Shown piece after piece: positions 4,274-63,876 of a stretch of DNA of 64,000 nucleotides. The stretch lies in assembly GCA_951406725.2 (NCBI GenBank), contig OX597822.1, positions 35,836,001 to 35,900,000 on the forward strand, read 5' to 3'. Positions within the stretch are counted from its first letter, which is position 1; the number at the start of each line of letters is the position of its first letter. Both the position numbers and the translations under genes were made by a program. The notes under the pieces are model-generated. The model saw only the letters and a program-made list of their open reading frames with translations, searched no databases and was not told the DNA's origin. Source of the DNA: Octopus vulgaris (lineage: Eukaryota).

Positions 4274-4356
4274 TTATGGTGCAGTTACTGATGAGAATTT
4301 CACCTAGCAAATTATTTTATTTGCTAAAAGAATTCGAAACCTAGGTATGACCATAA
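4274..4356 (+). ncRNA. Type I hammerhead ribozyme motif (canonical core)
   Basis: CTGATGA 4288-4294; helix II GAATT/AATTC extended by TAGCAAAT/ATTTGCTA; GAAA 4336-4339; helix III AC-CTAG-GT; GUA cleavage triplet; bulged helix I TTATG..GTTA/TGAC-CATAA. Confidence 0.8.
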
Positions 4357-4529
4357 AAAGATAAGGTAAAAGTTTTTATTTTTCATTCCCTTTGAAATTG
4401 CTTTTAAATGTGGTTTTAGTCGTTTTGACTGCTTCTTCTAGCATGTAAAATTACCTGTTAAAGGTAGTTTCTCTTGTGTTTAAATGTACACTATTTTATG
4501 TATGTATGTATGTATATATATATATAACT

Positions 4530-5270
4530 TAGATATGTTTCAATCAAAGATTGGTCCGGGCCATGTCTAACTTAATAGCACCACCTGGTAGGATTAGTTA
4601 ACTCCTTTTTAAGTCAAGTTTTGTGGTATCATGGTCCATCCAGTAAGGAGTTCTTGTTGAGTGGGTTGTATTTAGGTATAGGGAACTTATCTGGTATTCT
4701 TTGAAGAAATTTGTCCAGATTCTTTTTAAAGATGATAGGATCCTTTTCATCTTTGATCTGTTTTGGGGACAATGTTAAATAGGGCAGGGCCTGTTGAGGA
4801 AAAGAAAATGTATTGCAGTGTATTTATGTGTTGTGATCCTGAATTGGGTAGGGGACATATGTTCCCATGGTTTTAGCCTTGGATAAATTCTGAAACTTAT
4901 GTTGGGTAATGTTGGTGGTATATTCTCTACTTCATGCGAATGACGTATCGCTCACAGTAACACTGAAAAGAATAGAGTTTCAATGCTTTAAGGCAGTCCC
5001 AATAATTGAGATCCATCAAGCCCTTAATTTTTTTAGAGCATGCATTTTGTTTATATACCAAATTTGCTGTGAGATAGCATCCAAGGAAACATCCTCAAAC
5101 AATGCTGAATGTTAAAGAACACCTGAATGTTACAGACCAGGTGAGACAACTCACTTTGGAATCACCAAGATTGGTAGATATCGATATTTCATCATTATTG
5201 TGGCTTATCAATACCATGTACTCAGATCATCTTGAAACTATGACTAATATGCAAACAGAGTGAAGTCACA
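4530..5270 (-). mobile_element. CR1-clade LINE 3' fragment (decayed RT C-terminus and 3' end)
   Basis: Translates to LNYWDCLKALKLYSFQ...GPALFNIVPKQIK..FKKNLDKFLQRIPD, with stops and frameshifts. Confidence 0.75.
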
Positions 5271-8200
5271 TGATATATATACATACATATATATCAATAT
5301 ATAGATATAGATATATATATATATAAATGAGAATCAAGTTAGGTAAATCAATTCACATATAATAATACATATATCTAACCATAGACCCAATATGCATAAA
5401 TTTTAAAAAATATATTTAATATCTCAAAAATATTAAAACTATATAGATATACAAATATAATAATAATAATAATAATAATAATAATAATAATAATAAATAG
5501 ATTTATCAACTCATTAAAAATATATAAATACATAAATATATAAATACATTAAGAATATATTGAAAATATAAATACATACATAGATCAACCTACAGAACAA
5601 AAACGATACCATAGAAGGAGGCATTGTTCAGTAATGGATATAAATATCCTTTCTTTGACAAGATAACTGGACAGCCAGAAATGGCCATTGGATTATCAAT
5701 ACTCAAACCTTTTTATGTTTTACCTTTTGCTGGACTCTTAACTCTCTATCTAGTTCTATGACATCATTTTTATTTGGTAATTCAATCTATATATATATTT
5801 ATATTTTCAATATATTCTTAATGTATATATATTTATGTGCTGGCATGCAATAAGCACCATTCATGCAGGGGTCATTGCCAGTGCTGTCTGACTGGCTCCC
5901 CATGACACTGGCACGTAAAAAACATCATGTGAACGTGGTCAATGCCAGCCCTCCTCACCCCTAACTTTATTCTCATTTCTATATTCATCTCAAGTTCAAA
6001 TATTTTGAGCACTTCTAAAAGCAGTCTATACATTGGAAAAAATTTTTTTTCTTTTTTACATATAAACATATATATATATATATATATACCTATTTCTTTA
6101 TTACCCACAAGGGGCTAAACACAGAGGGGACAAACAAGGACAGACATAGGTATTAAGTCGATTACATCGACCCCAGTGCGTAACTGGTTCTTAATTTATC
6201 GACCCCGAAAGGATGAAAGGCAAAGTCGACCTCGGCGGAATTTGAACTCACAACGTAACGCAGACATACCATACACATACACGCAGAAATGTATATATAC
6301 ATATATAGAGGATGTAAGAGACAAAGAAAGGGAAAAGAGAAGCATTACAATTTATTAATTGAACACAACTGATACAAACAGTTTCCCTCTCTTCAGACAC
6401 ATAAAAGAAAATGTGCTTGCAATCACTGAGAGAGAGAGAGAGAGAAAGAGAGATAGAGAGAAAGAGAGGGGTGACATTGAAACAAGAGAAATGATAAAAC
6501 ATCTGATGTGAAATAAATTAGCTTAAACTCAGAAGTGCGAAATAGGCAGCACCAAAATGTCTCATACCCTGGAAAAATTATCACAAGGCACATTTCATTT
6601 GATGCTCAAATGACTCTGCTAATTGGTTTGAATACAACAAGAGCTAATTAAAAAAAAAAACAATTAAATATGTCATTCCCCGTTAATATTGGCCTTAAAT
6701 TTAGGCACAATGCCGGCAATTTTCGGGGGAGGACGTAAGTCGATAACATCAACCCCAGTGTCAAGCTGGTACCTATTTTATCATCTCGAAAATATGAAAA
6801 GCAAAGTCAACCCCACCAGAATTTGAACTCAGAACATAAAGATGGATGACATGCCACTAAGCATTTTGTGCAATGTGCTAACAATTCCGCCAGCATGCCA
6901 CATTTCATTTTTGGTTAATATTAGAGCTAAAGGATGTTAGAGTACAGAATAAACTAATGATGGCTGACACTAACAAATTTGTAAAATAAGATAAATCCGT
7001 CTGTCATAAGGAGAAGAGTTTTTGGCATTTTGAAAAGGACCTTTCTTGTTTTATAAAATTTTTAATTACCACATTTTCTAGCATCGATGACACTATTTCC
7101 TTCCTAAAATAAATCTTGAAAAATTATCATTCACCCTTGAGGACAAAGTACATTTTTTCTAAGTTTTAATCCCCAGAAGAGTGTTATCCATGATAAACAT
7201 ACTGGGTCTATGTGTTTTTTTATCTTTTACTTGTTTCAGACGTTGAACTGTGGCCATGCTGGAGCACCATCTTGAAAGGTTTTAGGGGAACAAATCAATC
7301 TCAGTACTTATGCTCTCTTTTTTTAAGTCTGATACATATTCTATTATTCTCTTTTGCCAAACCACTAAGTTACAAGGATGTAAACACCAGTTGTCAATGG
7401 GGTGAGTGACAAACACAGAAACACACACACATACACACACACACATGCACACACACATGCACACATACACATGTGCACACACACACACACACACATGATG
7501 GGCTTCCACACAGTTTCCATTCACCAAATTCACTTAAAAGGCATTAGTCAGCCTGGGGCTATAGCAGGAGACATTTGCCAAAGTTGCCATGCAGTGGGAC
7601 TGAACCTGAAACTATGTGGTTGCAAAACAAACATCTAAACCACACAGTTATACTTGTTTGCATGTTTCAAGACAAAATTAGGACAAGTCTTCAAGAATAG
7701 GAGAAAAATGGAACAAAATTAGGACAAGTCTTTGATGCCAAGATTTGGCAATAGTCTTTACAAAATTTTGAAAACAAGTTTTGATTACTAAGTCATCACA
7801 ATTTGTGTTCCTGAAAAATGTAAATTATCTATGATTATCTGCTAATTACTCCACAAAAACTTTCTGAAATTTAGTTTTAATAGGTTGCTTCCTTTTTGTT
7901 TTGTATTTTTTTTTCCTCATTTTTCTTTCTTTCATGGGTGTTGGCAACAGAAGGACACCCAGCCATAAAAAACAATTTCTTACATAAACATCTAAAACCA
8001 TGCCAGCATGGTAAAAAACAGACATAAGACGATGATGATGATGAGTTCACGCAGACATGTGTAATAATATAACAGACACCGCTAGCATCCAACAGATTTG
8101 CATGTCTTCATAATTTAAAGTACTAGGTTTTTTTTTTTTATAATGCGTTTTTGTTTTGTTTTTTTTTTTTTTTCTTCCTACCTTTTCTTCGGCAAGTATG

Positions 8201-63297: not shown

Positions 63298-63360
63298 AGA
63301 TAAAACTCTGAGTTTCAGATGCCGAAGTGGAAATCCACAACACCATCTCTTCGGTTATCT
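63298..63360 (-). ncRNA. Hammerhead-like motif, left-arm copy
   Basis: Reverse complement of 63814-63876. Confidence 0.6.
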
Positions 63361-63813
63361 GGCTATTTGAAAACGTTATGAAAAATACCGTTAAAAATGA
63401 AGGGAAATTACTCTGTTATAACTCTGCTTTGCCTGCGTACTTATACATCGCTCGCATTTTTCGTCATAAAAATTATATAAAAATACATAAAAATATATAA
63501 AAATATATAAAAATATATAAAATCTTCTTGGGACATAACACAGAAAGCATGTTCTATCCGTTTTCTTTAGGGGACCAAAATTTCTGTTACGTTTTTGGTC
63601 CCCTAAAGAAAACGGATAGAACATGCTTTCTGTGTTATGTCCCAAGAAGATTTTATATATTTTTATATATTTTTATATATTTTTATGTATTTTTATATAA
63701 TTTTTATGACGAAAAATGCGAGCGATGTATAAGTACGCAGGCAAAGCAGAGTTATAACAGAGTAATTTCCCTTCATTTTTAACGGTATTTTTTCATAACG
63801 TTTTCAAATAGCC

Positions 63814-63876
63814 AGATAACCGAAGAGATGGTGTTGTGGATTTCCACTTCGGCATCTGAAACTCAGAGTTTTATCT
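63814..63876 (+). ncRNA. Hammerhead-like motif (U4C core, extended helix II), right-arm copy
   Basis: AGATAA-CCGAAGA-GATG..GTGG(ATTT)CCAC..CATC-T-GAAA-CTCAGAG-TT-TTATCT. Confidence 0.6.

Follow-up and report, generated by a model that had tools for sequence, protein, structure and literature searches.

Which elements supply the short hammerhead ribozymes that stand beside (TA)n tracts in the genome of Octopus vulgaris, and can those with altered cores still cut? We analyzed one window, the 64-kb stretch at positions 35,836,001 to 35,900,000 of contig OX597822.1, within a 2.8-Gb assembly of 227 contigs. The window has a GC content of 28-43% and is rich in microsatellites. A first-pass annotation had read its hammerheads as a radiation of tiny ribozyme elements with non-standard cores. 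Our analysis points with good confidence to another origin: the motifs are type I hammerheads in truncated 3' ends at (TA)n, and in four of the five families these are pseudo-long terminal repeats (pLTRs) of autonomous, Hydra- or Neptune-type Penelope-like elements (PLEs), in which dimers of a tandem transcript are likely to be the cutting form. One family alone is retrozyme-like.

Six hammerhead motifs at five loci

Six motifs were present at five loci where the first-pass annotation had placed them, with the cores and helix III sequences it had given (Table 1). We named the families A (4274+), B (14815-), C (20532+), D (33231-) and E (63814+ and 63298-). All five display the type I order, paired helices I and II, GAAA and a U-H site, helix II of family B having 2 firm pairs only. 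With a relaxed type I descriptor the window gave 8 matches, the six motifs plus weak ones at 49509- and 31330-, whereas the average over 30 block-wise dinucleotide shuffles was 1.67; under a stricter filter there were 4 matches versus 0.27 in shuffles. Helix III alone formed no fold in any family, consistent with a palindromic stem that is unstable in a monomer, and the predicted helix III duplexes between two copies reached -11.4 kcal/mol for A, -7.4 for B and E, -10.1 for C and -1.7 for D. As anticipated, Rfam missed these hammerheads: of the 211 matches to the window at E<=10, the 150 listed include none, and in 8 loci drawn from all five families none reached the gathering score.

Every motif belongs to a multicopy, genome-wide family. 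A first look returned 97 candidates for family B, 835 for C and 882 for A (40 of each were scored), and exact patterns matched 3,669 times for E and 17,702 times for D, with 0 matches for reversed controls. The proposed association with (TA)n was borne out, as a (TA)4+ tract lay at most 360 nt downstream in 25/30 (A), 29/30 (B), 30/30 (C), 23/30 (D) and 30/30 (E) copies, compared with 308/1080 background windows (29%).

The variant cores turned out to be fixed within families. U6 occurs in 57/61 copies of D, C4 in 29/30 of E and 23/30 of B, and U3-A8 in 30/30 of C; the sets for A, B, C and E, like a first set for D, inflate conservation because their copies were chosen by likeness to the motif. 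The core CUGANGA or its U3-A8 covariant is kept in A and C, and is departed from in D, E and most copies of B. Three of the features called non-standard are already published (U3-A8, the extra A after A9, and the Hydra-type helix III ACUC-N-GAGU). The real departure is A6U in the family D motif CUGUUGAA, in which the extra A is standard.

To estimate the genome load, we sampled 400 kb as forty stretches of 10 kb, placed at round coordinates and spread over 19 contigs. The descriptor matched 18 times, against 1, 1, 0, 3 and 0 times in five shuffles, and the matches fell into many unrelated families with different palindromes. This density, 1 per ~22 kb, corresponds to ~120,000 motifs genome-wide (roughly 60,000-180,000 by Poisson limits). 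The earlier figure of one locus per 13 kb is about twice as high, and the excess of the window's six motifs over the sampled average is within chance (P=0.07). In many other families of this genome, stems and palindromes vary around a retained core. Among further families seen at other loci (including L246-L285), helix III reads CGUACG, CAUAUG, CAGCUG, CGCG, CCGG, CGAUCG, CUGCAG, CAAUUG and others; several have stem II arms of 40-60 nt, and some carry U3-A8.

Table 1. Features assigned in the 64-kb window; element types and cuts are predicted from sequence
Feature	Position	Strand	Hammerhead	C3	Cut predicted after	Parts
Family A fragment, ~458-nt non-coding, partly tandem unit	4271..4499	+	4274-4356	4288+	4347	
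Family B, 3' end of Hydra-type PLE, truncated on its 5' side and flanked by TA tracts	14778..14875	-	14815-14852	14848-	14819	
Family C, 3' untranslated region end of Neptune-type PLE	20216..20679	+	20532-20573	20537+	20568	PLE end 20296-20679; inverted pieces 20216-20314
Family D, 197-nt pLTR stub of 4.5-kb Neptune-type PLE, TA tracts both sides	33114..33310	-	33231-33268	33263-	33236	
Separate broken Hydra-type PLE remnant with internal inversion	43400..44698					Reverse transcriptase part 44062-44698 (+); thumb/linker part 44072-43884 (-)
Family E, one insertion of 2.58-kb Hydra-clade PLE end	63261..63977	both	63814-63876 (+), 63298-63360 (-)	63820+, 63354-	63870, 63304	Forward stub 63578-63977; inverted stub 63261-63580

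The elements that end in the motifs

In families B, C, D and E, the motif lies directly downstream of PLE frames for reverse transcriptase (RT) and the GIY-YIG endonuclease (EN), and the copies continue upstream with variable 5' ends. The suggested link to Penelope holds for these four of the five families. The inserts themselves are not tiny elements; they are 100-720 nt truncated ends of longer ones. For E and D we found tandem units of 2.58 kb and 4.5 kb, respectively, with a motif at each end.

Family E (core CCGAAGA) includes a tandem whose four motifs are spaced by 2579-2585 nt, two of its units containing frames of 717 codons. Its protein contains RWK, DKT in place of DKG, and a CxCX5C linker, and its N-terminus resembles Hydra-1_Obim by eye. 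Pfam matched GIY-YIG at E=0.014, below the cut-off, and a homolog search with the protein returned 840 proteins with uninformative names. Both motifs predicted in the window, 63814+ and 63298-, exist, as the two arms of a single insertion with a tail on the right arm only; its stubs are 97-100% identical to the end of the full-length element. C4 (U4C) is present in intact elements as well. At 10.1-11.1 the copies can be read as G10.1-Y11.1 with a bulged C (27 GU, 3 GC) or, equally well, as having an extra pyrimidine before G12. By eye, the commonest allele at 63855-63867 could form a UCUGA-AAC-UCAGA hairpin hiding G12-A13, which the C allele breaks. If transcribed, 63261-63913 would form a near-perfect hairpin of ~320 nt, a likely double-stranded RNA substrate.

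Family B has the core CCGACGA, a stem II of 2-3 bp with a GNRA loop, and helix III ACUC-A-GAGU. U4 replaces C4 in 6 of the 30 nearest copies, and also in the three loci with long frames (L243-L245), where a Hydra-type EN frame ends ~1 kb upstream of the motif. The 10.1-11.1 position is mostly mismatched (A-G 14, A-U 10, A-A 6; n=30). The proteins of B and E are 40% identical and the two families have helix III in common, which makes the inserts at 14815- and 63814+ relatives, not the unrelated sequences they had seemed. The Penelope remnant recognized earlier at 43.4-44.7 kb is real and Hydra-type, though not the parent of the five loci: the hammerhead descriptor found no motif within it, and Pfam gave no useful match for its frames. 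We therefore regard B, E and the remnant as probable Hydra-clade PLEs, E by its motifs and B and the remnant by similarity to E alone (40% and 33-55%, respectively).

Comparison with the Hydra clade (Craig et al. 2021, PMC8557442) is consistent with this placement. Family E agrees with it in RWK, DKT, CxCX5C, a length of <3 kb, the (TA)n target, an inverted 5' stub and a one-sided tail, and the helix III ACUC-N-GAGU and the pyrimidine before GAAA recur in File S2 of that work. Stem I CUGU/ACAG and the GNRA loop II of family B are like those of Hydra-2_aMil, and its helix III and stem I match those given for Hydra-2_aMil and Penelope-3_HM. In contrast, all cores in the available part of File S2 are CUGA, while family E has CCGA in 29/30. 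Searching that supplement for the precise strings of the B/E and D motifs gave no match.

We also looked at where the elements begin. For family E, 56 matches represented 21 loci with the element start at most 30 nt from the tail anchor; 4 started exactly after the predicted cut and 17 between -6 and +7, in an AT-rich stretch that favours microhomology with (TA)n. Across B, D and E, element starts showed no pile-up at the predicted cut. The 5' ends of family B cluster 41-50 nt upstream of the predicted cut (37/77 starts at L001-L030 and L185-L204, a set partly chosen by motif). This cluster coincides with a short GCTAGC palindrome, also the centre of many fold-back copies, and the fold-backs of family E are frequently centred on TGGCCA. 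These centres suggest fold-back priming at short palindromes.

Family C has the core UUGAAAA and the helix III AACCGGUU, and is followed by (TA)n. Upstream lie frames with RT, a CX4CxxC linker and GIY-YIG-type motifs, and the window copy consists of the last ~390 nt of the element plus inverted pieces. Families C and D both contain the DKG motif, a CX2-5CxxC zinc-finger linker and, at the C-terminus, GIY-YIG. We provisionally take both to be Neptune-type, as opposed to Nematis, an assumption made from thumb-region motifs and from the likeness of the ribozyme to the Acropora Neptune motif. The U3-A8 covariant has been published for Schistosoma PLEs (PMC4209133).

Family A has the canonical core CUGAUGA, a 41-nt stem II arm and the helix III ACCUAGGU. 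Its stem I shows compensation between U-A and C-G (19 UA, 8 CG, 3 UG; n=30). A circularly permuted direct repeat of ~458 nt was found in 4/8 loci examined, where two consecutive complete units were not seen. Because of this repeat and because no PLE frame is linked to it, family A looks retrozyme-like, the only one of the five to do so. It resembles metazoan non-LTR (long terminal repeat) retrozymes (PMC7229834; bioRxiv 10.64898/2026.07.22.740005) in being non-coding, AT-rich and partly tandem with a canonical type I hammerhead. It differs from them in its unit of ~458 nt (theirs is typically ~300 bp) and its long stem II.

Taken as a group, the motifs share much with the minimal hammerheads that metazoan PLEs carry (Cervera and De la Pena 2014, PMC4209133): type I topology, a short helix I, a palindromic or minimal helix III, the extra base after A9, G10.1-C11.1, the pLTR location, mostly solo truncated copies, pairs on opposite strands 100-700 bp apart, and the U3-A8 core, there in Schistosoma Cercyon. 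Palindromic helix III, U3-A8, TA targeting and inverted stubs are all published PLE features (PMC4209133, PMC8557442). Two differences stand out. Every Fig. S3 representative compared has A6 and U4, whereas D has U6 and E and B have C4; and the load estimated here is ~10^5, compared with the 2,000-9,000 per genome reported there.

These features would fit a simple cycle. In a transcript running through two pLTRs, both palindromes would pair as helix III, and a cut after H17 would free unit-length RNA. PLE minimal hammerheads have been reported to cleave weakly as dimers. The GIY-YIG domain would nick TA-rich DNA, and reverse transcription would mostly abort early, leaving short, often fold-back stubs like those in the window; AT-rich cleavage and internal initiation of reverse transcription have been described for a PLE protein (PMC11167929). 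A lone stub is predicted to be mostly inactive because it has no sense-strand partner. Family A is likely a non-autonomous, retrozyme-like passenger on the same PLE machinery.

The A6U core of family D

Family D has the core CUGUUGA+A (CUG-U-N-GA) and helix III ACGU. An alternative register does not remove the anomaly, as the A insertion alone does not restore A6. The window stub is 99.5% identical to the pLTR of locus L233. A protein search supplied 13 loci chosen for their long frames. In 8 of these, two CUGUUGAA motifs at a spacing of 4452-4497 nt enclose frames of 1015-1214 codons that carry DKG, RT, CX4CxxC and GIY-YIG-type motifs, and in the 4.5-kb elements whose open frames are long, each of the two pLTRs has U6. 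The frame at L230:2440-6081 also contains stretches rich in Pro/Thr ahead of the RT, and a run rich in Pro/Ser beyond the endonuclease. A 124-amino-acid piece of the frame gave 7,518 first-look candidates, which suggests that the family is very large and young.

A6 occurs in 197 of the 17,702 pattern matches (1.1%), and U6 in 95 of the first 100 matches listed. So as not to select for the motif itself, we gathered copies by the 3' tail and left out loci picked by ribozyme pattern; 61/67 spanned the motif. Besides U6, these copies showed N7 as U21/C17/A16/G7 and H17 as A46/U13/C2, never G. N7 and H17 are the two positions free in hammerheads, and they were the only 2 of 30 non-CpG ribozyme columns polymorphic at >=10%, against 23/80 flank columns (Fisher p=0.02, taking columns as independent and ignoring phylogeny). 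In a midpoint-rooted tree of 86 copies, built on a short alignment, N7 states largely follow clades and U6 runs throughout all large clades. Five A6 copies (L123, L171, L172, L173 and L175) group among divergent copies, and other A6 copies nest within U6 clades. We read A6U as derived, and as apparently retained through several subfamily expansions in elements with intact frames.

The change likely slows cutting. U6 is predicted to make U4-G5-U6 a partner of A15.1-C15.2-G16.2: across six contexts the probability of G5-C15.2 is 0.34-0.98, as opposed to 0.00-0.23 with A6. The monomer energy with U6 is below that with A6 in 3/6 contexts only. A natural A6C, in phage Bcep176, cuts at <0.1 per min (PMC3088659), and cleaves with a preference for Mn2+ (PMC7151607); U4C is known from a viroid (PMC3088659). 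As in families D and E, one normally invariant core base is changed there and the rest of the motif is intact, but those are single rare sequences with low but detectable activity. Here, A6U dominates a family of >17,000 copies with intact frames, and U4C a young family with 3,669 pattern matches. In the literature searched on core variants and cephalopods we found no report of a natural A6U, though such variants may appear in Figs 5, S6 and S7 of PMC3088659 or in Lunse et al. 2017 (PMC5785218).

Several relatives keep A6. The Acropora digitifera Neptune minimal hammerhead (PMC4209133) shares the layout of D, with a stem II ending GCUC and helix III A-CG-U, and differs at U6. Metagenome relatives of the D protein, few and distant, gave 8 loci at 28-58% identity, one of them with a motif, a canonical CUGAAGA. 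In a check for expression, contigs aligned to the D stub covered 19/29 bins and left the motif's 5' part uncovered; contigs cannot show RNA ends. A sister family with A6 was noticed at L274 (minus strand, ~9322 from the strand start) and L285:2592-2628, reading CUGACGAA or CCGACGAA. It shares the GAGC/GCUC stem II and the ACGU helix III with D, has a UCC loop, and offers a natural outgroup for A6U.

Competing explanations, other window features and meaning

Chance matching in AT-rich repeats can practically be dismissed as the source of the motifs. The loose descriptor does yield 1.67 matches per shuffled window and the monomer folds are unremarkable, but the 18 versus 0-3 matches in 400 kb, the published pLTR position, and the match of B to Hydra-2_aMil and Penelope-3_HM and of D to the Acropora Neptune layout speak for real hammerhead motifs; family and position evidence refute chance. 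It is also very improbable that the inserts are independent tiny ribozyme elements, or retrozymes, radiated in microsatellites. Most genomic copies are indeed short and without open reading frames, and family A, with its permuted unit and no linked frame, fits such a description; B, C, D and E run upstream into RT/EN frames with variable 5' ends, and the D and E stubs of the window are 97-100% identical to full-length element ends. For B-E the idea is refuted by these frames and this identity.

The standing of U6 is harder to settle. One explanation, which we consider unlikely, is that U6 is the frozen accident of one master element and that the seeming constraint reflects short divergence plus general pLTR conservation. 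The contrast in polymorphism is modest, 57/80 flank columns are likewise not polymorphic, and a canonical-core group sits among the more divergent copies. Yet U6 persists across clades in which N7 has changed among U, C, G and A, and the rare A6 copies include several nested in U6 clades like back-mutations. It is possible, though in our view doubtful, that the D motif, and perhaps that of E, no longer cuts and is kept as a structural element, for instance a hairpin to which the PLE protein binds or a section of the pLTR promoter, U6 locking an inactive rod. Changes at A6 give low activity (PMC3088659, PMC7151607, PMC9901934), the predicted U4-G5-U6 pairing would hold such a rod, Naiad PLEs spread without canonical hammerheads (PMC8557442), and family D reached its copy number with U6. 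Conversely, the polymorphic columns are exactly N7 and H17, and H17 is never G, a pattern predicted by catalysis; the energy gain with U6 is confined to half of the contexts, and cleavage persists in the natural A6C variant, which does well in Mn2+ (PMC7151607).

Our reading of the motifs as PLE hammerheads that cut as dimers has to carry several contrary points. Monomer folding was better than shuffles only for 4274+ (z -3.58), the other four motifs giving +0.58, +0.58, -0.78 and -1.36. The helix III duplex of family D has 4 bp only. Two-sided covariation is almost nil within B, C, D and E, which may be because the copies are young or were selected by motif. No PLE frame is tied to family A, the matches in 3/30 loci looking like incidental neighbours, and the Fisher test on family D treats related copies without phylogeny. 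When another hammerhead was comprehensively mutated, every CUGA-turn mutant apart from the C-G swap had low activity (PMC9901934), so the motif of family D may be dead. We nevertheless infer that A6U weakens cutting in family D and does not abolish it, because the rest of the motif appears constrained across subfamilies while N7 and H17 vary.

Other repeats of the window are a MITE-like (miniature inverted-repeat transposable element) palindromic element at 53040-53490, with arms at 53085-53211 and 53264-53390 and TAACCCTTT motifs near its ends; a 26-bp minisatellite of 47 copies (29851-31068); an 84-bp tandem of 6 copies with an inverted arm (38225-38997); and a 1.85-kb (ATC)n array (54807-56656). 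Two related frames, 25395-25724 (-) and 39545-40265 (+), presumably resemble the C-terminal end of a CR1/L2-type LINE (long interspersed nuclear element) protein.

Families A, B and C represent ordinary PLE biology; the novelty lies in the A6U core variant of D and in U4C of E. Tentatively, this genome may hold ~100,000 PLE hammerheads in dozens of families, the most abundant of which here, Neptune-type, would have been tuned down by selection, fixing U6 and holding on to it over several subfamily radiations. The outcome would be a ribozyme that is self-locked, slow or dependent on Mn2+, and whose cutting is restricted to paired copies within a tandem transcript. If true, this would be the first natural lineage-wide A6U hammerhead, and retroelements would select for weak, not maximal, self-cleavage. 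Family D offers a natural controlled comparison, with young intact U6 elements, a related canonical A6 subfamily and four N7 states, and the Hydra families B and E offer the same for U4 versus C4. It bears on whether such elements need cutting at all. The function of hammerheads in PLEs has been called unclear, and they may simply parasitize PLEs (PMC8557442). Should the variants prove able to cleave, more natural cores would be known, and large families would be escaping descriptor searches in which CUGA is fixed; should they not, a dead ribozyme fold would have been kept by a successful PLE lineage, an argument for a non-catalytic role. Either way, ~10^5 motifs, missed by Rfam at the loci tested, would constitute a large unannotated RNA feature of the octopus genome.

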